A stretch of 64,000 bases of DNA from Candidatus Crickella caballi (GTDB lineage Bacteria; Bacillota; Clostridia; Peptostreptococcales; Anaerovoracaceae): assembly GCA_018064665.1 (NCBI GenBank), contig JAGHUV010000028.1, positions 1,004 to 65,003 on the forward strand. Reading direction: 5' to 3'. Below the pieces are notes generated by a model. That model saw only the letters and a list, made by a program, of their open reading frames with translations. It was not told the DNA's origin and ran no database searches. Made by a program: the position numbers and the translations under genes. Positions 35,826 to 62,877 of the stretch are shown here, piece after piece. Each line of letters begins with the position of its first letter. The stretch's first letter is position 1.

Positions 35826-35902
35826 GGCGGCGTAGCTTAGCTGGCTAGAGCGTCCGGTTCATACCCGGAAGGTCATTGGTTCAAGTCCAATCGCCGCTAC
35901 CA
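35826..35902 (+). tRNA. tRNA-Met (CAT)
   Basis: Cloverleaf read by hand. Acceptor GGCGGCG/CGCCGCT, anticodon loop TTCATAC, GGTTCAAGTCC T-arm, encoded CCA. Confidence 0.85.
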
Positions 35903-35907
35903 AGTAT

Positions 35908-35983
35908 GGGCGCTTAGCTCAGCTGGGAGAGCACCTGCCTTACAAGCAGGGGGTCATAGGTTCGAGCCCTATAGCGCCCACCA
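35908..35983 (+). tRNA. tRNA-Val (TAC)
   Basis: Acceptor GGGCGCT/AGCGCCC, anticodon stem CCTGC/GCAGG with loop CTTACAA, encoded CCA. Confidence 0.88.
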
Positions 35984-35988
35984 GTCGC

Positions 35989-36065
35989 GGCCGGGTAGTT
36001 CAGTTGGTTAGAATGCCAGCCTGTCACGCTGGAGGTCGGCGGTTCGAGCCCGTTCCCGGTCGCCA
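35989..36065 (+). tRNA. tRNA-Asp (GTC)
   Basis: Acceptor GGCCGGG/CCCGGTC, anticodon loop CTGTCAC, encoded CCA. Confidence 0.88.
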
Positions 36066-36082
36066 CTTTTTCAGGAGAATAT

Positions 36083-36159
36083 GGTGGGTGTCGTCAAGTG
36101 GTTAAGACCCTGGGTTGTGGCTCCAGTATTCGTGGGTTCGAATCCCACCATCCACCCCA
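36083..36159 (+). tRNA. tRNA-His (GTG) with genomically encoded G-1
   Basis: An extra 5' G opposite discriminator C, acceptor GTGGGTG/CATCCAC, anticodon loop TTGTGGC, encoded CCA. Confidence 0.88.
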
Positions 36160-36208
36160 ATTTTCTCTTTTACATTTGAATATGATGTGCTATAATTACA
36201 CATGCTGA

Positions 36209-36283
36209 TGGGGTATAGCCAAGCGGTAAGGCAACGGATTCTGATTCCGTCATTCGCAGGTTCGAATCCTGCTACCCTAGCCA
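36209..36283 (+). tRNA. tRNA-Gln (CTG)
   Basis: Acceptor TGGGGTA/TACCCTA, anticodon stem ACGGA/TCCGT with loop TTCTGAT, encoded CCA. Confidence 0.85.
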
Positions 36284-36317
36284 AGAGAATGCGCCGGTCT
36301 AGTGCCGGCGCAAATAC

Positions 36318-36391
<74 letters not shown>

Positions 36392-49345: not shown

Positions 49346-52033
49346 ATGGCTTTTAGAAAATCCATTATGAAAATGGTAACCAAGGTAAGCGTTGAATCAG
49401 GTACTTATCTTGGAATCAAGCCGACTGACTCTGAATACATGATCTGTGATCCTATCGTTACTGATGAGATGGCAGAGGTATTTATGGGACTCAAGCTCCG
49501 TACACCTCGTACTGCTGAAGAGGTAGCTAAGAGAGTTAAGAAACCTGTAGATTATTGCACTGAGCAGTTGGAAGAGCTTGTTAGAGTAGGTATCGTTCGT
49601 ACAGACATCGAAAACGGTGTTATAAGATACTTCTTCCCTATCTGGGTACCTGGCATCATGGAAGGTATTCTTGCAAACGAGGAGCAGTGCAACAAGTATC
49701 CTGTACTCGGAGAATGCTTCGAAAGATACACAAGAGAGAGAACAGCTGCTCTGGCACCTAACCTTCCTGTAGGACAGGGCCTCATGAGAATCATGCCTGT
49801 TGAGGAGGCAATTCAGAACAGCGAAAGAGTTGCTTCGTTTGATGAGCTCAGCTATCTTATCGAGAAGGCTGAATACATTTCAGTTGGTGCCTGCTCATGC
49901 CGTCGTTCCCGTCGTCTTATCGGAGAGGGCTGCGGACACCTTGAGAAGGACATGTGCATGTACCTGAACAGAAGTGCCAAGTCAATGTCAGATGCAGGAC
50001 ATCACAGACTCATTACTAAGGAAGAGGCATACGAGATCCTCAAGAGAGCTGAGGACAATGGTCTCACCCACGAAATCAATAACGTTGAGAAAGCGGGCGA
50101 TGCCGAGGCTATCTGCAACTGCTGCGGATGCTCATGCTACTCGCTTAGAATAGCAGAATACTTCAAGTGTCCTGACCTTATCAGATCAAACTACGTATCT
50201 CAGGTTGATGCTGATAAGTGCGTAGCCTGCGGACAGTGCGTTGAGAACTGCCAGGTAAATGCTCTTCGTCTTGGACAGAAGCTCTGTACAGTTAATCCGC
50301 TTCCTGAGGCACCTAAGGAAGCAATGCCACAGGATACACCTTGGATGTTCAGCTCAAAGAACTGGGCTCTGGACTACAGAACAGCTCGTAAGGAGGTCGT
50401 TGACACAGGTTCAGCTCCTTGCAAGATGTCCTGCCCGGCTCATCTGCCTGTACAGGGATACATCAAGCTCGCAGCACAGGGCAAGTATGGTGAAGCTCTT
50501 GAGCTCATCAAGAAGAATAATCCGTTCCCTGCTATCTGCGGTCGTGTATGTAACAGACGTTGTGAGGACGCTTGCTCAAGAGGAAGCCTTGACGAGCCTA
50601 TCGCAATCGACGAGATCAAGAAGTTTATCGCTGAGCAGGATATGAAGGCTGAGCACAGATATGTTCCGCCAATGATCAACCAGACAGGTCAGCCATATCC
50701 TGAGAAGATCGCTATCATCGGTTCAGGTCCTGCAGGACTCACTTGCGCTTACTATCTGGCTTGCAAGGGATACACTCCTACAGTATTTGAGAAGGAGGAT
50801 ATCCTCGGTGGTATGATGACTCTCGGTATTCCTAACTTCCGTCTTGAGAAGGATGTAGTAAAATCAGAAATCGACGTTCTGAAGGAGCTCGGAGTTGAGT
50901 TCAAGACAGGCGTTGAGGTTGGTAAGGACGTTACTATTGCAGAACTCAAGGAGCAGGGCTACAAGGGATTCTACGTAGCAATCGGTCTGCAGGGCACTCG
51001 TAAGCTCGGAATCGAGGGCGAGGATGCTGAAGGCGTTATGTCCGGACTCGAGTTCGTTAAGAGCGTAAACAGAGGCGAGAAGGTTAAGCTCGACGGCAAG
51101 GTTGTTGTTATCGGTGGCGGAAACATCGCAGCTGATATCGCAAGAACTGCAGTAAGATGCGGAGCTAAGAGCGTAGATATGTACTGCCTCGAGAATTACG
51201 ATAGCATGCCTATGGGCGTTGAGGATCGTGATGAGTGCGAAGCTGAAGGAATCAAGATCCACGGATCATGGGGTCCATCAGAAATCGTTGTTAAGGATAA
51301 CAAGGCTGTTGGCGTTAAGTTCAAGGAGTGCTATGCACTTACAGACGGAACAGGCAAGTTCAACCCTGCATTCAAGGAAGAGAATACATGCGTAGCTGAT
51401 GCTGACTTCATCATGGTTTGCGTAGGACAGTGCTCAGACATGGGTAATGTTCTTGAAGGAACAAACTGCGTTGTTGGTAAGGGCAACCTCGTAGAGGCTG
51501 ACGGCTTCACATGGCAGACTGCAGATCCTGACGTATTTGCAGGTGGAGATATCGTAACAGGAATGAAGTTCTGTATCGATGCTATCGCAGAAGGTAAGGA
51601 AGCAGCAATCTCACTCCACAGACACGTTCATGAAGGACAGAACCTGTACTACGGACGTCCAACAGGCGATTACAAGCCACTTGATCTGGACAATGCCGAT
51701 CTCAGCTCATATGACAGAGCACCACGTCAGAAGCCTGGTGTAAAGAAGGGCAAGAGCACATCGACAATGAAGGATCTCAGAGAAGTCTTCACAGAAGCTC
51801 AGATCCAGAAGGAGACAGATCGTTGTCTCGGCTGCGGAGCAACTGTTGTTGATACCAACATGTGCGTAGGATGCGGAATCTGCACAACAAAGTGCAAGTT
51901 CGATGCTATCTCACTCAAGAAGGTTCACAACGAAGGATCACTCGGATACGAGAAGATCATTCCTGGCATCATGGGTAAGACTCTTGCTAAGAGAGCCGGA
52001 AACATTGTTGTTAAGCCATTTAAGAAGGCTTAA
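49346..52033 (+). CDS. Multidomain Fe-S flavoprotein: Cys-rich N-terminal domain + ferredoxin clusters + GltD-like NAD(P)H/FAD oxidoreductase + C-terminal ferredoxin
   Basis: CSCRRSRRLIGEGCGH, CNCCGCSC, CVACGQCVENC, CGRVCNRRCEDAC, dinucleotide motifs IIGSGPAGLTCAYYL and VVVIGGGNIAAD, C-terminal CLGCG..CVGCGICTTKC. 895 aa. Confidence 0.8.
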   Translation: MAFRKSIMKMVTKVSVESGTYLGIKPTDSEYMICDPIVTDEMAEVFMGLKLRTPRTAEEVAKRVKKPVDYCTEQLEELVRVGIVRTDIENGVIRYFFPIWVPGIMEGILANEEQCNKYPVLGECFERYTRERTAALAPNLPVGQGLMRIMPVEEAIQNSERVASFDELSYLIEKAEYISVGACSCRRSRRLIGEGCGHLEKDMCMYLNRSAKSMSDAGHHRLITKEEAYEILKRAEDNGLTHEINNVEKAGDAEAICNCCGCSCYSLRIAEYFKCPDLIRSNYVSQVDADKCVACGQCVENCQVNALRLGQKLCTVNPLPEAPKEAMPQDTPWMFSSKNWALDYRTARKEVVDTGSAPCKMSCPAHLPVQGYIKLAAQGKYGEALELIKKNNPFPAICGRVCNRRCEDACSRGSLDEPIAIDEIKKFIAEQDMKAEHRYVPPMINQTGQPYPEKIAIIGSGPAGLTCAYYLACKGYTPTVFEKEDILGGMMTLGIPNFRLEKDVVKSEIDVLKELGVEFKTGVEVGKDVTIAELKEQGYKGFYVAIGLQGTRKLGIEGEDAEGVMSGLEFVKSVNRGEKVKLDGKVVVIGGGNIAADIARTAVRCGAKSVDMYCLENYDSMPMGVEDRDECEAEGIKIHGSWGPSEIVVKDNKAVGVKFKECYALTDGTGKFNPAFKEENTCVADADFIMVCVGQCSDMGNVLEGTNCVVGKGNLVEADGFTWQTADPDVFAGGDIVTGMKFCIDAIAEGKEAAISLHRHVHEGQNLYYGRPTGDYKPLDLDNADLSSYDRAPRQKPGVKKGKSTSTMKDLREVFTEAQIQKETDRCLGCGATVVDTNMCVGCGICTTKCKFDAISLKKVHNEGSLGYEKIIPGIMGKTLAKRAGNIVVKPFKKA

Positions 52034-52113
52034 CTCACGCAAGTTCTGGTGGGGACAGAGGGTCGATCCGTCTGTCCCCATTTTCTTGGATTCCATATCA
52101 GGAGAAAAATATT

Positions 52114-52461
52114 ATGCATGAAATGGGAGTAGTGATGGCTGCGTGTGATCAGATTATTGCTTTCGCAGAAGAAAACAATATCAGTGAAATCGCAGAGATC
52201 GTTTTCGCAATAGGCGAGGGCAGTGGAGTCTTCGAGCCTTATGTAAGAAAGGTTTATCCTGCTGTTGTCAAGGATACTATGCTTGAGAAAACAGAGCTCG
52301 TTATAGAGACTGTTCCGGGGATGGCGGAGTGTCTCGATTGCTTTGAGATATACAACGTCCTTGAAAATGAGGGCAAATGTCCGGAGTGCGGCAGCAAGAT
52401 GAAAGAAATTCTTTCAGGAACTGAATTTGCGATCAAGGAGATTCACGTTCCGGAGGACTAA
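52114..52461 (+). CDS. hypA: HypA/HybF-type nickel metallochaperone homologue
   Basis: N-terminal MHE nickel-site motif and zinc site CLDC-x13-CPEC. 115 aa. Confidence 0.8.
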   Translation: MHEMGVVMAACDQIIAFAEENNISEIAEIVFAIGEGSGVFEPYVRKVYPAVVKDTMLEKTELVIETVPGMAECLDCFEIYNVLENEGKCPECGSKMKEILSGTEFAIKEIHVPED

Positions 52462-53751: not shown

Positions 53752-53794
53752 CGAGTGTTTGTCCGCGGATTGCGGACAGACACTCGCTTTTTTT
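53752..53794 (+). terminator. Rho-independent terminator
   Basis: 15-bp stem CGAGTGTTTGTCCGC/GCGGACAGACACTCG, 5-nt loop, T7 run. Confidence 0.9.
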
Positions 53795-53824: not shown

Positions 53825-53853
53825 TTGGAATTTGTCCGCGTATAGTGTACAAT
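53825..53853 (+). promoter_or_regulatory. Candidate promoter of the liv-type operon
   Basis: TTGGAA 53825-53830, 17-nt spacer, TACAAT 53848-53853. Confidence 0.55.
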
Positions 53854-53896: not shown

Positions 53897-55081
53897 ATGA
53901 AAAAAGTATTAGCTTTAATGGTGACATTAGCAATGGTACTTGTTTTCTGCGTAGGTTGCGGCGGCGGTTCAACAGCTGCATGGGATCCTGAAGGCGACAC
54001 TGTTACTATCGGTGTATTTGAGCCGGCATCAGGAGACAACGGAGCAGGCGGAAAGCAGGAGACACTTGGTGTTCAGTATGCAAACAAGGTACAGCCTACT
54101 GTTGAGATCAACGGTAAGGAGTACAATGTTAAGCTCGAGATCGTAGATAACGAGTCAGATAACTCCAAGGCAGTTACAGCAGTTCAGAACCTCATCTCCA
54201 AGAACGTTTCCATCGTTCTCGGATCATATGGTTCATCCGTATCTATCGCAGCAGCAGATGCACTTGCTGAGGCAAACATGCCTGCAGTAGGTATCACTTG
54301 CACTAACCCACAGGTTACTGCAGACTGCGAGCAGTACTTCAGAATCTGCTTCCTGGATCCATTCCAGGGTACAGTTCTTGCTAACTACGCTTGGGAAAAC
54401 GGAATGAAGAAGGCATACTGCCTCTCCAAGCTCGGTGATGACTATTCAGCAGGACTTGTTAACTACTTCAAAGAAGCGTTCACAGCACTCGGTGGCGAGG
54501 TTGTTGAAGAGCAGTTCCCGGACAAGAACACTGACTTCACATCCTATGTTGCTAACGCTAAGAAGTCCGGTTGCGACGTATTCTTCAGCCCTGTATCAAT
54601 CGAGGCTGCTGTAAATATCGTAGACCAGGCTCAGGCTCAGGACCTCGGAATGCCAATTCTCGCAGGAGACACTTGGGACTCCAACATGGTTACAGCTGCA
54701 GCAAAGGGAACTAACGTAGAAGTAATCGTTACTACATTCTATCAGGAAGGTGGTAACCCTGATTTCGATAACGGCATCAAGTCTTGGATGGAAGAGGATT
54801 CAGATGCTCTGACAAACAACGGTGGAAACACTGACCTGGCTGCTGTTACAGCAATGGGTTACGATGCATACTTCGTTGCTCTTGAGGCATTCAAGGCAGC
54901 AGGAACAGCTGATCCTTCAGCAGTTCTCGCAGCACTTCCTTCACTCGAGGTTAACGGACTCGTTTGCGGAGACGTTACATTCAACGAGACAGGTGATGCT
55001 AACAAGACTGAGGCATTCGTTAAGAAGTGCAACAACGAAAAGGGCGCTTGGGAGTTCCTGAAGAAGCAGGCTGCTAAGTAA
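53897..55081 (+). CDS. ABC transporter substrate-binding lipoprotein (LivJ/branched-chain amino acid type, type I PBP)
   Basis: Lipobox LVFCVGC-GG. VTIGVFEPASG and YGSSVSIAAA patterns typical of the Leu/Ile/Val-binding family. Confidence 0.85.
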   Translation: MKKVLALMVTLAMVLVFCVGCGGGSTAAWDPEGDTVTIGVFEPASGDNGAGGKQETLGVQYANKVQPTVEINGKEYNVKLEIVDNESDNSKAVTAVQNLISKNVSIVLGSYGSSVSIAAADALAEANMPAVGITCTNPQVTADCEQYFRICFLDPFQGTVLANYAWENGMKKAYCLSKLGDDYSAGLVNYFKEAFTALGGEVVEEQFPDKNTDFTSYVANAKKSGCDVFFSPVSIEAAVNIVDQAQAQDLGMPILAGDTWDSNMVTAAAKGTNVEVIVTTFYQEGGNPDFDNGIKSWMEEDSDALTNNGGNTDLAAVTAMGYDAYFVALEAFKAAGTADPSAVLAALPSLEVNGLVCGDVTFNETGDANKTEAFVKKCNNEKGAWEFLKKQAAK

Positions 55082-55177
55082 TAGCAACACTGATAAGATT
55101 AAGAAACATCTTTCAATGTGACAAAAGAATAGCGGGAGGCCGTAGCGGCTTCCCGCATTTCTTGAAAGGGAATATCA

Positions 55178-56062
55178 ATGGGAATTTTACAAACATGGTT
55201 ACCGTACATACTTGCGGGTATCGCAGTTGGCGGACAGTATGCGTTAATAGCTATTGGATACACGATGGTATACGGTATCCTGAGACTTATTAACTTCGCA
55301 CATGGTGATGTGTTCATGTGGTCGGGACTTCTTATGATATATCTGATCACAGTACTCCCTCTTTGGCTTGCGATTATTATCGTTATTGCTTTCGCCATTG
55401 TTCTGGGAACAACAATTGAAAAAGTGGCCTACAGGCCATTAAGATCTGCACCTCGTATGTCAATCATGATTTCTGCAATCGGAGTTTCTTACTTCCTGCA
55501 GAATATCGCTCTGTATGTAACAGGCGGTCTGACCAAGACATACCCAAATATCGGATTCCTGCAGAAAACTGTCAAGATCGGTTCAGCAACCACCAAGATG
55601 GTTACGCTTATCACTCCTATTCTGACAATTGTTCTGGTTGTCCTGCTCGTTCTTCTTATAAAGAAGACCAAAATCGGCATGGCAATGCGTGCAGTATCTC
55701 GTGACTTCGAAACATCTTCCCTCATGGGAATTGATATTAACAGAGTAATTACAGTTACATTTGTTATCGGATGCGGACTTGCTGCAATCGGATCTGTACT
55801 GTACTTCTCAAACTATACAGGCATCAACCCTATGTCAGGTGCAATGCCTGGACTTAAAGCATTCGTAGCCGCTGTATTCGGTGGAATCGGTTCAGTACCG
55901 GGCGCTGTAGTAGGTGCCTTTGTAATCGGTATCTGCGAGAACCTCATTAAGGGCGCAGGCTGGACAACATTCTCCGATGCATTCACATTTGTTCTGCTCA
56001 TCATCATCCTGATGGTTAAGCCAACAGGACTCTTCGGTGAGAAGAATATTGATAAGGTATAG
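55178..56062 (+). CDS. livH: Branched-chain amino acid ABC transporter permease (LivH type)
   Basis: GYTMVYGILRLINFAHGD signature, 294 aa. Confidence 0.9.
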   Translation: MGILQTWLPYILAGIAVGGQYALIAIGYTMVYGILRLINFAHGDVFMWSGLLMIYLITVLPLWLAIIIVIAFAIVLGTTIEKVAYRPLRSAPRMSIMISAIGVSYFLQNIALYVTGGLTKTYPNIGFLQKTVKIGSATTKMVTLITPILTIVLVVLLVLLIKKTKIGMAMRAVSRDFETSSLMGIDINRVITVTFVIGCGLAAIGSVLYFSNYTGINPMSGAMPGLKAFVAAVFGGIGSVPGAVVGAFVIGICENLIKGAGWTTFSDAFTFVLLIIILMVKPTGLFGEKNIDKV

Positions 56063-56075
56063 AGAGGAGGACGTT

Positions 56076-57377
56076 ATGAACAACAATATTACATTGAAGA
56101 AACAGACCAAAACGATCCTCTCAATCGCTGCTATCGCAGCGATACTCGTGCTCGTTTACCTTACTGATGATATGGGCGGCAATCCAATGCTGATTACAGT
56201 AATCGAAAAGGGTGCTGTTTATGCACTCGTTGCCGCATCGATGAACCTGCTTAACGGTTTTACCGGACTGTTCTCACTCGGACAGGCGGGTTTCATGCTC
56301 ATCGGTGCATACTCATATGCAATATTTACTATTCCTAAGAACTCACATGCAGCTGTATACCAGTACTTTGACGGTGGTGCTATTCAGTGGTCAATCGTTG
56401 AGATTCTGGAATCCAAGATGGGAATTTTCGGACACTATCTCGGAATGTTAATTCCGATGATCTTTGCCGGACTGTTTGTTGCACTGATTGCATATCTTAT
56501 CGGTATTCCTGTACTCAGACTTAAGTCGGACTACCTCGCAATTGCAACACTCGGTTTTGCCGAGATTCTGAGAGCGTTCTTCCAGTGGAACACACTCGGT
56601 CCTATCACAAATGCATCAAACGTACTGCGTAAGTATACAGTATACAACAATGCGGTTTTCCCAGTTATTATTGCGGGACTCTGCATAGCATTCATCGTTC
56701 TGTTGATTAACTCAACCTATGGTCGTGCATTCCGTGCGATCAGAGATGACGAAATCGCAGCAGAGGCAATGGGTGTTAACCTGTTCAAGCATAAGGAACT
56801 TGCTTTCGTAATTTCCTCATTCTTCGCAGGAATCGGTGGAGCACTTCTGGCAATGTTCCAGACAACTATCAATGCAACACCTTTCGCAACAACAATGACT
56901 TATGAGATTCTGCTGATGGTAGTAATCGGCGGTATCGGTTCAATAACAGGATCTGTTATTGCGGCATTCCTGTTCACAGCTTGCTCAGAGTGGTGGCTCA
57001 GAGGACTTGACTCGGGTACATGGCTGGGAATTACATCCCCACTGTTCCGTGCAGGCTTCCGTAAGGTAGTATTCGCTGTTATCATCATGCTTATCGTACT
57101 CTTTGCAGCACAGGGCATTATGGGAACAAAGGAATTCAGCTGGGACGGATTTATCAACTGGTTCAGAAACCTTCCTGCTAACTTAAAGGCATGGCCTGAA
57201 AAGCACAAGGCTAAGAGCGAAGCTAAGAAGAATGAAAAGGCTGCAGTTAAGGCTGCTAAGATCAAGGCCAAGGAAGACAAGAAGAATTCAGAGGCTAAGA
57301 GAGCAAGCGGCGAGAAACTGTTCACACCTCTTGAAACATTCGACCACGTTGTAGTATTTGATAAGGAGGGCAAATAA
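56076..57377 (+). CDS. livM: Branched-chain amino acid ABC transporter permease (LivM type) with Lys-rich C-terminal tail
   Basis: GFTGLFSLGQAGFMLIGAY signature. GGAGGA RBS before ATG 56076. The last ~80 aa are a charged KAKSEAKKNEKAAVKAAKIKAKEDKK segment. Confidence 0.88.
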   Translation: MNNNITLKKQTKTILSIAAIAAILVLVYLTDDMGGNPMLITVIEKGAVYALVAASMNLLNGFTGLFSLGQAGFMLIGAYSYAIFTIPKNSHAAVYQYFDGGAIQWSIVEILESKMGIFGHYLGMLIPMIFAGLFVALIAYLIGIPVLRLKSDYLAIATLGFAEILRAFFQWNTLGPITNASNVLRKYTVYNNAVFPVIIAGLCIAFIVLLINSTYGRAFRAIRDDEIAAEAMGVNLFKHKELAFVISSFFAGIGGALLAMFQTTINATPFATTMTYEILLMVVIGGIGSITGSVIAAFLFTACSEWWLRGLDSGTWLGITSPLFRAGFRKVVFAVIIMLIVLFAAQGIMGTKEFSWDGFINWFRNLPANLKAWPEKHKAKSEAKKNEKAAVKAAKIKAKEDKKNSEAKRASGEKLFTPLETFDHVVVFDKEGK

Positions 57378-58226
57378 ATGGCTGACAGAGAAGTTGTATT
57401 AAAGCTCTCCGACGTTACAATGCAGTTCGGAGGCGTTGTAGCTGTAGACAATCTTAATCTTGAGGTTCACAAGAACGAAATCGTTGGACTTATCGGTCCT
57501 AACGGTGCCGGAAAGACAACAGCTTTCAACGTTATTACAGGCGTATATGAGCCAACCAACGGTAATGTAGAGATCAACGGAGATGTTGTTATCGAAAATT
57601 ACCCACAGGGTAAGATGACGGATACGTACAAAGGACGTAACCAGGGTGTATATACTGAAGTCAAGACTATGCTTCCTGACGCAGTAACTAAGCTGGGCGT
57701 AGCTCGTACCTTCCAGAACATCAGACTTTTCAAGGGCATGACTGTACTTGAGAATGTACTTGTTGCAATGCATATGAATCAGAAGCAGAGCATATTCGGC
57801 GCTGCTTTCAGAAGCCCTCTTGCACGCAAGGAAGAGGCTGCAATGAGAGAAGAGGCACTTGAGCTCCTTAAGAAGGTAGACTTATATGAGAACAAAGACG
57901 ACCTTTCAACGTCACTTCCGTACGGAAAGCAGAGGCATCTGGAGATCGCACGTGCTCTGGCAACACACCCTACTATTCTGCTTCTCGACGAGCCTGCTGC
58001 AGGTATGAACCCGCAGGAGTCAGACGATCTTATGAAGTTCATCGGTCGTATCAGAGATGAGTTCGATCTTTCAATTCTTATGATCGAGCACCATATGCAG
58101 GTTATCATGGGTATCTGCGAACACATTTATGTACTTAACTACGGCGGTCAGATTGCAGACGGAACACCTGAAGAAATTCAGGCTAACCCTGCGGTTATTG
58201 AGGCTTATCTTGGAGGTGACGAATAA
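57378..58226 (+). CDS. livG: Branched-chain amino acid ABC transporter ATP-binding protein (LivG type)
   Basis: Walker A GPNGAGKTT, signature LPYGKQRHLEIARAL, Walker B ILLLDEPAAG. Confidence 0.92.
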   Translation: MADREVVLKLSDVTMQFGGVVAVDNLNLEVHKNEIVGLIGPNGAGKTTAFNVITGVYEPTNGNVEINGDVVIENYPQGKMTDTYKGRNQGVYTEVKTMLPDAVTKLGVARTFQNIRLFKGMTVLENVLVAMHMNQKQSIFGAAFRSPLARKEEAAMREEALELLKKVDLYENKDDLSTSLPYGKQRHLEIARALATHPTILLLDEPAAGMNPQESDDLMKFIGRIRDEFDLSILMIEHHMQVIMGICEHIYVLNYGGQIADGTPEEIQANPAVIEAYLGGDE

Positions 58227-58930
58227 TGCTGGCAATAAGAGATTTACATGTTTATTACGGCGGAATTCACGCTTTAAGAGGTATTGATATCGATGTTCCT
58301 GACGGAAAGATAATTTCACTTATCGGAGCTAACGGAGCAGGAAAGTCAACAACACTTAAGTCCATCATGGGACTTGTTCCTAAGGCTGAGGGACACGTTT
58401 ACTGGGATGATGTGGATATTACTTCCAGCAAGACTAAGGACATCGTAGGAGAGGGTATTATCCTTTGCCCTGAAGGCAGAAGAATTTTCCCTGACCTTAC
58501 AGTAGACGAGAACATCGCAGCAGGAGCATATCTCCGCAAGGACAAGGCTGAAATCGCAAGAGACAGAGAATGGGTATATGAGCTGTTCCCAAGACTGTCC
58601 GAGAGAACATGGCAGCTTGGTGCAACCCTGTCCGGAGGTGAGCAGCAGATGCTGGCTGTAGCAAGGGCGCTTATGTCCAAGCCAAAGCTTTTGATGCTTG
58701 ACGAGCCTTCACTCGGACTGGCACCATTGATTATTAAAGATATTTTCGCTATTATTGAGAAAATCAAAGCAGAAGGAGTAAACATCCTTCTTATCGAGCA
58801 GAATGCCAAGGCAGCACTTGACATTTCTGATTATGCATATGTAATGGAAACAGGCGTTATTACTATGGCAGGACCTGGTAAGGTGCTGCTTAATGACCCT
58901 AGAGTACAGCAGGCTTATTTGGGAGAATAA
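58226..58930 (+). CDS. livF: Branched-chain amino acid ABC transporter ATP-binding protein (LivF type)
   Basis: Walker A GANGAGKST, LSGGEQQMLAVARAL, LLMLDEPSLGL. Confidence 0.92.
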   Translation: MLAIRDLHVYYGGIHALRGIDIDVPDGKIISLIGANGAGKSTTLKSIMGLVPKAEGHVYWDDVDITSSKTKDIVGEGIILCPEGRRIFPDLTVDENIAAGAYLRKDKAEIARDREWVYELFPRLSERTWQLGATLSGGEQQMLAVARALMSKPKLLMLDEPSLGLAPLIIKDIFAIIEKIKAEGVNILLIEQNAKAALDISDYAYVMETGVITMAGPGKVLLNDPRVQQAYLGE

Positions 58931-61419
58931 TGATTAGCGGAGTAATGAAAATTGCAGTAAGTGGGATCATGATGGTCCTGCTTACTGCTGTTCTGTATAG
59001 ATACGAACAGAACCATCAGAAACTAAAAAATGAGAAGCGCATGACGTGGCAGATAGTAATCGGCATTGTTTATGGCTTCGTGGCAATTTGCGGAACTGAG
59101 TTTGGAGTGCAGTTTGAAGGCGCGGTTATGAACATCAGAGATGCTGCACCTCTTTGTGCTGGTCTTTTATTTGGCGCACCTGCCGGAATAATTGCAGGCC
59201 TTATAGGCGGCATCGAGAGATGGTTTGCAGTTTTTTGGGGTGCGGGCGAGTATACAAGGCTCGCATGTACACTGGGCACTATTATCGCAGGCTTTTTTGC
59301 TGCTTTTATTCGCAATAGCGTTCTGGAAAACAAGAGACCGGGATTTGTATATGCTTTTGCACTCGGAATGGTTACAGAGGTAACACACCTGTTGCTTGTA
59401 TTCCTCACAAATTTCGACGATACAGCGAATGCAATCAGGGTTGTAAGAGTCTGCACTCCGGTTATGATACCGGGGGTTGCGGCAACTGTATGTCTTTCAG
59501 CTCTTGTTCTAAACCTTATGAATAAGGATAAGTTCAAATTCAATCCCAAGAACAGAAAGATTGTCGAGGATCTGCAGGCGGGACTTCTAATAACTGTACT
59601 TATTACATTTGTTCTGACAAACGGTTTCGTACTTCTTATGCAGAACCATATGGCAGAAAAGCTTGCGTCAAACACAATCGCGCGGACATTAAATGACGTT
59701 AAGGCAGATTCAGCGGAGTCGGGATATACAGGTGATGAACTTACAAACTTCCTGGCAGAAGAAGTAAAGAACTGGCATATAGGAAAAGAGGGCTATATCG
59801 CAATCTTTAACGGTGACGGATATATTGTTACCGCGACAGAAGGTGCATTTTCACAAGAGGCTCTGGAGGCCCATTATGACCTTACCAATCTATACGCACA
59901 CAAGGAGTATTCTGTTTTCAAACAGCAGGTAAGCGGCCCGGACGATATATGCTACATTTCATATATCAAGATGGGAAAATACTGCGTGCTAGGATTATAT
60001 CCTGAGTCTGAGGCGGATCTCAGCAGAAATGTTTCACTGTATACGACGGCCTTCTTTGAAATCATCATTCTGGCGGTGCTTTTCATTCAGATATTTTTCC
60101 TGATAAGAGAAAAGGTTGTTAAGAGCATGCGCAAGGTTAATGATGATCTTGATCGAATCAGCTCAGGTGATCTGGATGTAAGAGTTAATATTGACTCCAA
60201 CAAAGAATTCGTTTCTCTTTCAGAAGATATAAATGAAACGGTAGATACTCTGAAGCACTATATTCAAGAGGCTTCAGCAAGAATAGATGCAGAGCTGCAG
60301 CTTGCCAAGGATATACAGTATTCAACACTTCCGAGAGTATATCCAAACGGAAGAAAGATGGAGCTTTATGCCAACATGATGGCGGCCAAAGAGGTTGGAG
60401 GTGACTTCTATGACTTCTATCCTGTAATGGGAAACAAGTTTGCTGTTCTTGTAGCGGATGTTTCGGGCAAAGGTATTCCGGCAGCTATGTTCATGATGAA
60501 AGCAAAGACTCTTATAAAGAGTCTTGTAGAGACAGGAGCTTCACCTGAAACGGCATTGACAAAGGCAAATGAAGAGCTTTGCGAAAACAATGACTCCGGA
60601 ATGTTTGTTACAGTTTGGCTTGGAATTATCGACCTTGATACGGGCTTAATTCAGTATGCCAATGCAGGACATAATCCTCCGATCATTATTCGAGAGAATA
60701 AAGAACTGGACTTCTCTGAGCAGAAGCCGGGCTTTGTCCTTGCAGGCCTTGAGGGTATTAAGTATGTGGGCCATGAGGTAACGCTGGAGAAGGGTGAGAC
60801 CATCTTTATGTATACAGATGGCGTAACCGAAGCTACAAATTCGTGCAACGAGCTTTATGGAGAGGAGCGTCTTGCTAATGCTCTCAGGAAGGTTGCCGGA
60901 ATGAATACAAGATATCTGTGCAAGTATGTTAAGGCAGATGTTGACAGATTTGTAGGTGCTGCGCCTCAGTTTGATGACATTACCATGATGGCAATCAGAA
61001 GGAAAAATGAACTGGACGGTTCTCTGAGCGTTAAGCCGGACAAAGAATCGATTGCAGAGGTAATGGAATACTTTGACAACTTCAATGAGGAAAACAAAAT
61101 TCCACTCTCGATGTCGGCTAAGATTATGGTAATCGTTGACGAATTATATTCCAATATCGTAAACTACAGTGGAGCGACATTTGCAAACATTTACTGCAGA
61201 CTTGAACAAAGTAAAGGCAGAATATGCATGTCGTTCGAGGACAACGGTATTGCATATAATCCACTTGATAAAGAAGATCCTGACATAACACTTTCAAGTG
61301 AAGAACGCGAGATAGGCGGACTTGGAATATTTATGGTCAAGGAAATGGCTGAGGACGTGAAATACAGTCGAATTAACGGTAACAATATTCTGGATGTAGT
61401 ACTGAGGAATGAGGGGTAA
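58930..61419 (+). CDS. Membrane sensor: 5TM LytS-type receptor + extracytoplasmic loop + HAMP + PP2C (SpoIIE/RsbU) phosphatase + RsbW/SpoIIAB-type HATPase kinase
   Basis: NIRDAAPLCAGLLFGAPAGIIAGLIGGIERW (5TMR-LYT). HAMP at about nt 60100-60290. PP2C at about 60295-61005 (EVGGDFYDF, ADVSGKGIPAA, YTDGVTEA, FDDITMMAI). HATPase at about 61020-61416 (DELYSNIVNY, EDNGIAYNP, GGLGIFMV). The ATG overlaps the livF stop. Confidence 0.85.
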   Translation: MISGVMKIAVSGIMMVLLTAVLYRYEQNHQKLKNEKRMTWQIVIGIVYGFVAICGTEFGVQFEGAVMNIRDAAPLCAGLLFGAPAGIIAGLIGGIERWFAVFWGAGEYTRLACTLGTIIAGFFAAFIRNSVLENKRPGFVYAFALGMVTEVTHLLLVFLTNFDDTANAIRVVRVCTPVMIPGVAATVCLSALVLNLMNKDKFKFNPKNRKIVEDLQAGLLITVLITFVLTNGFVLLMQNHMAEKLASNTIARTLNDVKADSAESGYTGDELTNFLAEEVKNWHIGKEGYIAIFNGDGYIVTATEGAFSQEALEAHYDLTNLYAHKEYSVFKQQVSGPDDICYISYIKMGKYCVLGLYPESEADLSRNVSLYTTAFFEIIILAVLFIQIFFLIREKVVKSMRKVNDDLDRISSGDLDVRVNIDSNKEFVSLSEDINETVDTLKHYIQEASARIDAELQLAKDIQYSTLPRVYPNGRKMELYANMMAAKEVGGDFYDFYPVMGNKFAVLVADVSGKGIPAAMFMMKAKTLIKSLVETGASPETALTKANEELCENNDSGMFVTVWLGIIDLDTGLIQYANAGHNPPIIIRENKELDFSEQKPGFVLAGLEGIKYVGHEVTLEKGETIFMYTDGVTEATNSCNELYGEERLANALRKVAGMNTRYLCKYVKADVDRFVGAAPQFDDITMMAIRRKNELDGSLSVKPDKESIAEVMEYFDNFNEENKIPLSMSAKIMVIVDELYSNIVNYSGATFANIYCRLEQSKGRICMSFEDNGIAYNPLDKEDPDITLSSEEREIGGLGIFMVKEMAEDVKYSRINGNNILDVVLRNEG

Positions 61420-61422
61420 AAG

Positions 61423-61719
61423 ATGGAAATTATTAAGAATCTTGACAGCGAGAAGCTGGAACTGCAGGTAAAGGGCAGACTTGATACAACAACTGCTCCT
61501 GAGCTTGAGGAGGTTATTAAGGGCTCCCTGAGCGGTGTAAAACAGCTCGTTCTGGATTTTGATGAGCTTGAGTACGTTTCATCTGCAGGACTGAGAGTTA
61601 TTCTTGGTGCGCAGAAGGCTATGAATCAGCAGGGAGAGATGAAGCTGATCAATGTCAGTGATGAGGTTATGAATGTGTTTGAAATAACCGGATTCGTTGA
61701 TATTCTCACTATAGAATAA
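61423..61719 (+). CDS. STAS-domain anti-sigma-factor antagonist (SpoIIAA/RsbV-like)
   Basis: 98 aa. LDFDELEYVSSAGLRVILG contains the conserved phosphorylatable Ser. Confidence 0.88.
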   Translation: MEIIKNLDSEKLELQVKGRLDTTTAPELEEVIKGSLSGVKQLVLDFDELEYVSSAGLRVILGAQKAMNQQGEMKLINVSDEVMNVFEITGFVDILTIE

Positions 61720-62765
61720 TGAAAAAAATATTTCTTTCATTCATTACACTGTTCTGCTGCATACTGCTCTGTTCATGCAGATCGGGTGAGAACGGTGAGG
61801 TATATGTATATTGCTACGGTGACTACTTTGATCCAATGGTTGCAGAGGAATTTGAGGAGGAGACCGGCATAAGAGTAATCCAGGATTACTATGATACCGC
61901 TGAAGAGATGTATACAGTTCTCGAAAACAATGCGACTACTTACGACTGCATCTGCACTTCGGACTATATGATAGAGAAGCTTGTGAACAATGACATGCTT
62001 GCTGAGCTCAATTATGAGAATATTCCGGAGGCAAAGAATATCGATGATATATATATGAAGAAGTCGGAAAGCTTCGATCCGGGTAACAAATACTCAATCC
62101 CGTATCAGGTAGGCATTCTCGGTATCGATTATAATACCAAGATGGTTGGTGATATTAAAATCGATTCATGGGAAGATCTCTGGAATGAAGAATTCGCAGA
62201 CCAGATGGTAATGCCTGACAGCGTAAGAGATGCTTTTGCAATAAGTCTTAAGAAAAACGGAGCCACGCTGAACTCTGAGGATGAGAAGGAAATAAAGGCA
62301 GCGGCCAAGGACCTTATTGCACAGAAGTCTATGGTATACAGATATGCCAACGATGCGGCAAGAGACCTTCTTGTTGATGGATCGGCTGCGGTTGGCGTAG
62401 TATGGAACGGTGAGTATCAGTATATTAAGGACCTCAACGAGGATTGTGAGTTCGTTGTACCTAAAGAAGGAAGCGAATTCTTTATCGATTCCTGGTTCAT
62501 TCCTAAGGATGCTATAAATAAGGCAAATGCGGAGGCCTGGATCAATTATCTGTGCCGTGCCGATGTAGCATATAAGAACTTCGAGTATCTTTACTACACT
62601 ACACCTAATAAGGCTGCGAAGGAGCTCATTGATGAGGAATATCTCGAAGATGAAGCAATCTTCCCAAGCGAAGAGCTTGTAGGAAAGTGCGAGTCACTCA
62701 AGACACTTGATAATAAAACAATGGATATTTACAGCATGAACTGGAAGAAAGTCAAGGCTGAATAA
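61719..62765 (+). CDS. PotD/PotF-like (spermidine/putrescine-type) ABC substrate-binding lipoprotein
   Basis: Lipobox ILLCSC-R. VYCYGDYFDP, DYMIEKL, VWNGEY, EGSEFFIDSWFIPK patterns of the PotD family. The ATG overlaps the STAS stop. No cognate permease or ATPase genes follow. Confidence 0.8.
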   Translation: MKKIFLSFITLFCCILLCSCRSGENGEVYVYCYGDYFDPMVAEEFEEETGIRVIQDYYDTAEEMYTVLENNATTYDCICTSDYMIEKLVNNDMLAELNYENIPEAKNIDDIYMKKSESFDPGNKYSIPYQVGILGIDYNTKMVGDIKIDSWEDLWNEEFADQMVMPDSVRDAFAISLKKNGATLNSEDEKEIKAAAKDLIAQKSMVYRYANDAARDLLVDGSAAVGVVWNGEYQYIKDLNEDCEFVVPKEGSEFFIDSWFIPKDAINKANAEAWINYLCRADVAYKNFEYLYYTTPNKAAKELIDEEYLEDEAIFPSEELVGKCESLKTLDNKTMDIYSMNWKKVKAE

Positions 62766-62787: not shown

Positions 62788-62828
62788 AAACAGCTCCTAT
62801 CGGATCATTTCCGAAGAGGAGCTGTTTT
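62788..62828. terminator. Bidirectional rho-independent terminator
   Basis: AAACAGCTCCT ... AGGAGCTGTTT stem with T-run. It lies between convergent genes. Confidence 0.8.
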
Positions 62829-62877
62829 ATATGCTGCCGATAAAAGAGCGTTTAAGCTTTTAATATTGATATTTTGA

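Follow-up and report, generated by a model that had tools for sequence, protein, structure and literature searches.

The sensor-STAS pair and its locus

In the 64,000-nucleotide stretch of contig JAGHUV010000028.1 of Candidatus Crickella caballi that was analysed here (the window), a preliminary description had singled out a membrane sensor carrying both a PP2C phosphatase and a SpoIIAB/RsbW-type kinase, encoded together with a small STAS protein between a Liv-type ABC importer and an orphan PotD-like binding protein, and had proposed that these genes form a transporter-coupled nutrient-sensing circuit. This region, 53.9-62.8 kb of the window, contains eight open reading frames (ORFs), all of which lie on the + strand; the two substrate-binding proteins are called SBP1 and SBP2 below, and lengths are given in amino acids (aa) or nucleotides (nt).

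53897..55081, + strand: SBP1, a LivK-type lipoprotein binding protein (Peripla_BP_6, Pfam E 3e-43)
55178..56062, + strand: livH-type permease (BPD_transp_2, E 7e-40; NCBIfam LivH, E 4e-62, under the equivalog cutoff)
56037..57377, + strand: livM-type permease (BPD_transp_2, E 3e-40)
57378..58226, + strand: livG-type ABC ATPase (ABC_tran and BCA_ABC_TP_C; NCBIfam LivG, E 4e-86)
58226..58930, + strand: livF-type ABC ATPase (ABC_tran; NCBIfam LivF, E 4e-74)
58930..61419, + strand: the sensor, 829 aa (5TM-5TMR_LYT, loop, HAMP, PP2C, RsbW-type kinase)
61423..61719, + strand: the STAS protein, single-domain, 98 aa (STAS, Pfam E 9e-16)
61719..62765, + strand: SBP2, an orphan PotD-family lipoprotein, 348 aa (SBP_bac_8, Pfam E 3e-28)

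From livG onward the neighbouring genes overlap or almost touch each other. In fact the junctions around the pair are exactly those reported before, since the ATG of the sensor overlaps the livF stop (AATAATG at 58927-58932), the STAS ATG stands 3 nt past the sensor stop, and the STAS stop overlaps the SBP2 ATG (TAATG at 61717-61721). The domains of the sensor are arranged as follows.

aa 33-185, nt 59026-59484, + strand: 5TM-5TMR_LYT (Pfam E 1e-23)
aa 238-373, nt 59641-60048, + strand: extracytoplasmic Cache/PDC-like loop (hydropathy scan and fold search)
aa 396-442, nt 60115-60255, + strand: HAMP (Pfam E 2e-5, at the cutoff)
aa 502-692, nt 60433-61005, + strand: SpoIIE/PP2C (Pfam E 1e-51, full profile covered)
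aa 703-823, nt 61036-61398, + strand: RsbW-type kinase, HATPase_c_2 (Pfam E 7e-14)

Pfam and the hydropathy scan agree on the architecture described before, namely a LytS-type 5TM receptor followed by a loop, HAMP, PP2C and a SpoIIAB/RsbW-type kinase. The scan gives 8 transmembrane (TM) segments with the loop between TM7 and TM8, and because HAMP comes after TM8, the loop must be extracytoplasmic. No Response_reg (REC) domain of the sensor is matched by Pfam, and the input region consists of 5TMR-LYT, the loop and HAMP. As regards the fold, an AlphaFold2 model of the sensor built on 50 homologues (mean pLDDT 83) has as its top match in the PDB the fused RsbU-RsbW domains of Rv1364c from M. tuberculosis (3ke6, E 4e-17), and the next matches are SiaA-PP2C (TMt 0.83), RssB and SpoIIE. 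As the PP2C domain dominated this full-length search, the loop was modelled on its own (pLDDT 83), and it is predicted to fold into two helices, the first of them long, and a sheet of five strands accompanied by short helices. The PDB entries that it matches are mostly Cache/PDC ligand-binding domains of chemoreceptors and sensor kinases, such as PctD, McpH, Mlp24, Tlp3 and HK1S-Z16, and we assign it with moderate confidence to a single Cache/PDC-like module. Moreover, no part of the sensor evolves faster than the loop, which has 58%, 38% and 32% identity in the three closest homologues, as against 88%, 73% and 59% for the PP2C domain.

The catalytic residues were compared across 50 homologues. 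In the PP2C domain D492, D510, D630, D682 and D683, assigned as metal ligands as in PPM phosphatases, are invariant, and so are the N-box residues E738/N742, the G1 residues D771-x-G773 and the G2 motif G796-GLG of the kinase domain. A PDB search with the kinase domain as a single sequence gave no match, and the family profile was required; with it, the C-terminal domain matches RsbW (6m36_A, E 1e-5) and SpoIIAB (3e-3), with the ATP-binding motifs aligned. As far as alignment can tell, the catalytic and ATP-binding motifs of the sensor are all intact, and the antagonistic phosphatase and kinase are both found by Pfam in one chain, as had been claimed. The preliminary description had also named a HATPase domain without ATP-binding residues as a finding that would count against it; in the profile alignment these residues are retained.

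The STAS protein passes the anti-sigma-antagonist model TIGR00377 with 73.7 bits against a cutoff of 53.45. Its motif Y-V-S-S-A-G-L, in which a conserved serine had been noticed before, is aligned with F-M-D-S-S-G-L of SpoIIAA/RsbV, and Ser54 (codon 61582-61584) falls at the position of SpoIIAA Ser58 and RsbV Ser56, the established phosphorylated sites. It is likely that the STAS protein is the substrate of the adjoining sensor, as was presumed. With 24.5 bits against the MlaB model mlaB_1 (cutoff 90), it does not belong to the MlaB family.

The sensor family and its gene neighbours

The sensor belongs to a very large family with at least 5,992 homologues (E <1e-10). The best 120 of them all have 5TMR-LYT and SpoIIE, with HATPase_c_2 in all but one, and where a name is given it is only 'SpoIIE family protein phosphatase'. 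For the comparison of gene contexts we fetched 80 loci from named genomes, 80 from metagenomes, along with a dozen contigs that carry the closest homologues (individual loci are cited by L numbers, L001 being the window's own copy); a metagenome scan with the sensor gave distant loci only, with nothing closer than 49% identity. When the window's eight proteins were compared with 165 loci by tblastn, 96 of the loci gave a STAS match. Among the 88 loci having at least 2.5 kb on either side, a STAS gene is no more than 3 kb away in 53 of the 66 with a fused or split kinase, as against 3 of the 22 without (odds ratio 26, Fisher p 3e-8). The STAS gene thus tracks the kinase domain, which argues that the two form a functional pair and is the strongest comparative evidence for it.

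At about 75 loci the two ORFs closest upstream and the three closest downstream were then put through a Pfam census, in sets of 125 and 150 proteins. STAS was counted 47 times, APH 20, HD_4 11, ABC_tran 11 and a separate HATPase_c_2 7 times, and the APH neighbour is a STAS-APH fusion in the locus examined. The HD_4 and STAS-APH proteins are likely to be effectors of the family's phospho-switch. As for sigma-domain proteins, there is at most one in each of the two sets (275 proteins), and none in the window genes scanned, 39.3-64 kb. The earlier statement that no sigma factor lies in or next to the operon holds accordingly in both scopes, and judging from the census, the absence of sigma factors is a property of the whole sensor family, beyond the window locus. 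It had been considered beforehand that sensor-STAS pairs might usually stand next to a sigma/anti-sigma pair, and the neighbourhood comparison shows that they do not.

Several other arrangements were seen around members of the family. For example, a cluster consisting of a 320-aa protein, the sensor, STAS, HD_4 (RelA/SpoT-type HD) and STAS-APH recurs around sensor relatives of about 940 aa, as seen in L015, L017, L018 (3024-8882), L021, L022, L027, L054 and L055. The upstream 320-aa protein was considered as a binding protein and ruled out, as it has no signal peptide, is conserved as a cytoplasmic protein and has no Pfam match. In the window, tblastn across the 64 kb found no second sensor, STAS, HD_4, STAS-APH or 320-aa gene. 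There are also shorter paralogues of about 690 aa with 5TMR-LYT, loop and PP2C and no kinase (L010, L014, L024, L030, L032-L036, L041, L047 and others); these are almost never beside STAS, as the 3 of 22 kinase-less loci show, and presumably act on a different substrate. In L044 (39-2878) and L045 (10001-12809), from metagenome-assembled genomes of Bacteroidales/Paludibacteraceae, a PP2C sensor gene, an ABC ATPase gene of 365-375 aa and a separate HATPase_c_2 kinase gene follow one another in a split arrangement. An enrichment of ABC ATPases near the family was examined and dropped: matches of about 25% identity occur within 10 kb in about 17 of 80 loci, which by a rough estimate is not above their abundance in Firmicutes.

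The Liv and SBP2 genes and their linkage to the pair

By their domains, the five genes upstream of the sensor are those of a HAAT/Liv-type ABC importer. The HAAT/LIV-I set is complete, with a Peripla_BP_6 binding protein, two BPD_transp_2 permeases and two ATPases, LivG having BCA_ABC_TP_C; all Liv NCBIfam scores are under the E. coli equivalog cutoffs, hence the substrate is left unassigned. As listed from GTG 56037, livM overlaps livH by 26 nt, and because its homologues have 435 aa, the start is probably ATG 56076 instead. The last 90 aa or so of LivM form a Lys/Ala-rich tail (window 57100-57377; counterpart L083 8100-8430), ending in a strongly conserved motif LFTPLxTxDHVVVFDKEG(K/R) common to the window and L083. 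Homologues of LivF are found in the hundreds at 88-94% identity, some of them named Mogibacterium or Eubacterium sp.

SBP2, at the other side of the pair, matches the PotD proteins of S. pneumoniae (4eqb, E 2e-63) and E. coli (1pot, E 8e-51) and has a lipoprotein-type signal sequence, and from these matches it is a true PotD-family protein, though with 205 bits it does not reach the NCBIfam PotD equivalog cutoff of 582. Its pocket was compared with the full-length E. coli PotD chain at 13 residues that make contact with spermidine in E. coli PotD. SBP2 is identical at 6 of them (Y37, S83, Y85, W229, D257 and Y293), conservative at 4 (W34Y, E36D, E171D and W255F) and different at 3 (T35G, D168S and Q327L), and at these last positions the S. 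pneumoniae PotD is likewise not E. coli-like. The predicted ligand of SBP2 is likely a polyamine. No potABC genes lie beside SBP2 in the window, L083, L169, L170, L171 or L172. There is no Shine-Dalgarno sequence before SBP2, which suggests that its translation is coupled to that of STAS.

In the comparison of loci, SBP2 together with true Liv components was found by tblastn in 3 of 165 loci including L001, to which L172 was added afterwards. The linked set thus consists of the window, L082, L172 and L083, all of one Mogibacterium-like, Anaerovoracaceae-like clade. L082 and L172 (sensor identity 79%) show the livF end, the sensor and STAS, with SBP2 about 80 nt further on, while L083 (sensor identity 55-56%) has the entire SBP1-livHMGF-sensor-STAS-SBP2 order, its gaps being 18, 16 and 25 nt. 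Compared with the window, the proteins of L083 are identical by 94% for LivG/LivF, 91% for LivH, 55% for the sensor, 60% for SBP1, 74% for STAS and 75% for SBP2; the transporter core has changed much more slowly than the parts for sensing and ligand binding. A little further away, at sensor identities of 48-53% (L084, L085, L166, L167 and L168), the contexts are unrelated: in L084, L085 and L166 a convergent mnmA gene comes first, followed by sensor-STAS-LOG and two ABC exporters, in L167 the sensor stands with peptidase-C39 exporters, and in L168 it follows ppdK.

The other two modules were followed in the same way. In four contexts where liv has a LivF homologue of 90% identity, the order is SBP-H-M-G-F, a canonical terminator and metK. 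Homologues of SBP2 number in the hundreds at 70-75% identity, and its orthologues of 73-75% identity (L169, L170 and L171) stand where SBP2 stands in the window, ahead of Na/Pi-PhoU, Rrf2, IscS and NifU, with none of sensor, STAS, Liv or potABC in that syntenic slot in the three orthologues examined. In L170 and L171 a gap of 740 nt precedes SBP2. In L169 (1033-9080), which has no sensor at that locus, SBP2 comes directly after REC-GGDEF-EAL and Hpt genes, and some 5-7 kb before it are a STAS gene and a gene for a STAS-APH-HATPase_c_2 fusion; here too the orphan PotD-like gene has signalling genes as neighbours. From gene order, Liv, sensor-STAS and SBP2 are three separately distributed modules brought together in one Anaerovoracaceae-like lineage, and since they are independently distributed in close relatives, their juxtaposition is best read as a clade-specific operon accretion. 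The transporter or the second binding protein as output of the switch, as proposed earlier, accordingly gains no comparative support, the linkage being limited to these four contigs. A Liv linkage unique to this genome had been named as a finding that would speak against that proposal; this is essentially what was observed, though the linkage extends to four contigs of one clade.

As for transcription, the following signals were found along the unit.

53752..53786, + strand: intrinsic terminator of the upstream major facilitator superfamily (MFS) gene, upstream boundary of the unit (16-bp stem, 9 GC pairs, then TTTTTTT)
53825..53853, + strand: promoter-like site TTGGAA-17-TACAAT before SBP1 (consensus match only; an AGGAGG ribosome-binding site comes next)
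55132..55156, + strand: GC-rich hairpin between SBP1 and livH (11-bp stem, 9 GC pairs)
58954..58988, + strand: hairpin inside the 5' end of the sensor ORF (16-bp stem, U-rich tail, z -4.8)
about 62789..62830, + strand: terminator-like stem-loop and T-run, end of the unit (dG about -29 kcal/mol, 75-nt stretch folded)

The preliminary description had regarded the eight genes as a single unit with its only terminator at 62788. A stem-loop is indeed present there, but the hairpins at 55132-55156 and 58954-58988 also have to be considered, and a single transcript across the eight genes is plausible but not simple. The hairpin between SBP1 and livH is likely an attenuator or a transcript-stabilising element. 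The hairpin in the sensor ORF begins 24 nt past the ATG, has about -25 kcal/mol and is followed by UGUUCUGUAU. It is kept in L082 (z -4.0) and L172 (z -3.2) with one compensatory change of a G-C to an A-U pair, but not in L083 or in sensors further removed, and stands at the position where liv-only operons carry their terminator. These three sequences are suggestive of a candidate attenuator or partial terminator that would lower the expression of sensor-STAS-SBP2 relative to liv. Altogether the sensor-STAS pair is probably co-transcribed with the Liv and SBP2 genes, possibly at a level reduced by the hairpin after livF. A sigma-70 promoter scan, with 22 sites as against 22.6 expected in shuffles, is uninformative on internal promoters. 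An Rfam search gave neither riboswitch nor leader RNA in the vicinity of the operon; its only finding in the window was six clustered tRNA genes on the + strand (35826-36388).

In the flanks, immediately before the liv operon (window 49346-52461), the gene for an Fe-S/flavin oxidoreductase of 895 aa, with Fer4, Fer4_20 and Pyr_redox_2 domains, precedes those for a HypA-like nickel metallochaperone and the MFS transporter. Downstream of SBP2 a Na/Pi cotransporter-PhoU gene lies on the opposite strand.

A probable phospho-switch and its known relatives

Considering the pair by itself, the features of partner switching, that is a PP2C phosphatase, a GHKL kinase and a STAS protein with its serine, are present, and a cognate sigma factor is missing from the window genes scanned. 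We regard it as on balance probable that the sensor and the STAS protein make up a self-contained phospho-switch of the partner-switching type without a sigma factor, and that the Liv and SBP2 genes were juxtaposed to it by clade-specific accretion. Under such a mechanism the loop and/or the 5TMR-LYT module would bind a ligand, and the balance of kinase and phosphatase would be shifted through HAMP; the kinase domain would phosphorylate Ser54 of STAS and the PP2C domain would take the phosphate off, and STAS in one of its forms, most likely without the phosphate, would bind a downstream effector. By analogy with SypA, HsbA and SiaC (PMC8256260, PMC8457831), it is the unphosphorylated STAS that is probably active, and its target is probably not a sigma factor. 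Several points weigh against this explanation. The fold matches of the loop are weak (E about 1e-3, TM 0.4-0.5), and the Fisher p value of the co-occurrence of kinase and STAS takes no account of phylogeny. Moreover, the stop-start overlaps at either end of the pair, together with the missing Shine-Dalgarno sequence of SBP2, suggest selection for co-expression, and the gene order around the sensor is kept down to 55% sensor identity in L083, so a functional link of the pair to Liv or SBP2 within the clade is possible.

The rivals differ in where they would seek the input or the output of the switch. If SBP2 were the input, the polyamine-bound protein would dock on the sensor loop and set the balance of kinase and phosphatase, as in NspS-MbaA. 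This agrees with a largely intact polyamine pocket in a protein that has no adjoining permease or ATPase genes, with an SBP2 start that overlaps the STAS stop and is not preceded by a Shine-Dalgarno sequence of its own, with a Cache-like extracytoplasmic loop of about 135 aa on the sensor, and with the sensor-STAS-SBP2 order retained in L082, L172 and L083. A binding-protein gene beside a sensor gene is also a known signalling pattern (PMC8050422, PMC8079147), and lipoprotein binding proteins are encoded immediately upstream of other family sensors in L019, L020 and L028. However, the sensor-free SBP2 orthologues (73-75%) of L169, L170 and L171 sit in the same slot, SBP2 keeps 75-87% identity in relatives whose sensor loop is down to 32-58%, which is unlike co-evolving partners, and in about 160 loci sensors of the same loop architecture occur without SBP2; with SBP2 beside the sensor in 4 of about 165 loci including L001, a conserved pairing of the NspS-MbaA type is not observed, and we consider this input unlikely. 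Doubtful to a similar degree is a classical partner switch, in which the fused RsbW-like domain would sequester a sigma factor encoded elsewhere and the unphosphorylated STAS would release it. By sequence, the C-terminal domain indeed matches the anti-sigma kinases RsbW and SpoIIAB best, and the closest solved architecture is that of Rv1364c, which acts on SigF, whose gene is at another locus; but sigma genes are essentially missing around about 75 family members and among the window genes scanned, and the recurring partners are instead HD_4 and STAS-APH proteins.

The importer as output, with one phospho-form of STAS binding LivG/LivF and modulating import as MlaB does with MlaF, seems to us rather improbable. 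In its favour, the pair is joined to the 3' end of the liv operon by overlapping codons, in four contigs, and in the Bacteroidales loci L044 and L045 the ABC ATPase gene stands between the PP2C sensor and the separate HATPase_c_2 gene. There is also a precedent in MlaB, where Thr52, equivalent to the phosphosite, lies in the MlaF interface and T52E weakens binding, with no kinase known (PMC7367683). On the other side, the linkage of Liv and sensor is confined to a single clade, Liv operons with a 90% identical LivF end in a terminator and have no sensor-STAS pair, and a hairpin stands between livF and the sensor. The STAS proteins of L084 and L085, where the pair is unlinked to liv, are still 70-71% identical, so that the surface is not obviously specialised for Liv, and the low score against the MlaB model points in the same direction. 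Still less probable is a combination of both links within the clade, where STAS under its membrane kinase/phosphatase would switch the LivG/LivF importer on and off while SBP2 would feed a polyamine signal to the loop; if true, this would be the first ABC importer under the control of a phospho-regulated STAS protein, a mechanism hypothesised and never shown for MlaB-MlaF. The transporter-coupled nutrient-sensing circuit of the preliminary description is therefore of low probability, comparative genomics being unsupportive of it.

Taken as a phospho-switch without a sigma factor, the sensor-STAS pair would stand for thousands of unnamed proteins of gut and rumen anaerobes, in which a membrane module of nutrient-receptor type is combined with both arms of a partner switch. 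The recurrence of HD_4 and STAS-APH as partners suggests that Clostridia possess a so far unexplored signalling network based on serine phosphorylation, which the effector of STAS, once found, would open. The window locus in turn offers a natural setting where a transporter or an orphan polyamine-binding protein is the candidate partner, the link being clade-limited at present.

The preliminary description could not match the locus to a described system, which was overstated in view of SypE/SypA and HsbR/HsbA (PMC8256260), SiaABCD (PMC7647112), and the fused RsbU-RsbW structure 3ke6. In SypE/SypA of Vibrio fischeri and HsbR/HsbA of Pseudomonas, an RsbW-type serine kinase and a PP2C domain are likewise in one polypeptide, which acts on the conserved serine of an adjoining single-domain STAS protein (PMC8256260, PMC10120452, PMC6482189), and the output is likewise not a classical adjacent sigma/anti-sigma pair. 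SypE and HsbR are however cytoplasmic with REC input, whereas the window sensor has 8 TM segments with 5TMR-LYT, the Cache-like loop and HAMP, and the domain order of SypE is kinase-REC-PP2C, whereas here PP2C precedes the kinase. Rv1364c, the best structural match, has PP2C directly followed by the RsbW-like kinase as the window sensor does, but it is soluble, takes its input through PAS and carries a C-terminal fused STAS, where the window has a membrane sensor and a separate STAS gene. It is the membrane receptor input (5TMR-LYT, Cache-like loop and HAMP) that sets the sensor apart from SypE, HsbR and Rv1364c. In SiaABCD of P. aeruginosa, a membrane HAMP-PP2C protein opposes a kinase on a small switch protein with a non-sigma effector (PMC7647112, PMC8457831). 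SiaA is in fact the best NCBIfam match of the sensor (NF038263), but with 71.3 bits against a cutoff of 700 the sensor is no SiaA orthologue; moreover SiaB is a separate kinase, and the window system is without a diguanylate cyclase.

For the neighbouring modules, the likeness is found in other systems. NspS-MbaA of Vibrio cholerae also has a transporter-less PotD-like protein beside a membrane sensor with an extracytoplasmic domain (PMC8079147, PMC8967002), but the output of MbaA is GGDEF-EAL, and the adjacency of SBP2 is restricted to one clade while its orthologues occur sensor-free. MlaB-MlaF shares a STAS gene accompanying an ABC transporter, with the phosphosite-equivalent residue of MlaB at the ATPase interface (PMC7367683); MlaB differs in being a shorter STAS protein with no known kinase, serving a lipid transporter of diderm bacteria, whereas the window STAS is of the canonical anti-sigma-antagonist type (TIGR00377) with a dedicated kinase/phosphatase, and its interaction with LivFG is only hypothetical. 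Finally, receptors of the LytS/BtsS type have the same N-terminal membrane module (PF07694), in which BtsS binds pyruvate (PMC10653868) and which shares the fold of ECF S-components (PMC11109136), and a fusion of 5TMR with a PPM phosphatase was mentioned in passing in a 2024 survey (PMC11109136). Those receptors are histidine kinases working with LytTR regulators, whereas the window sensor carries an additional inserted Cache-like loop and HAMP, and its output is a PP2C phosphatase and a serine kinase that would act on STAS.

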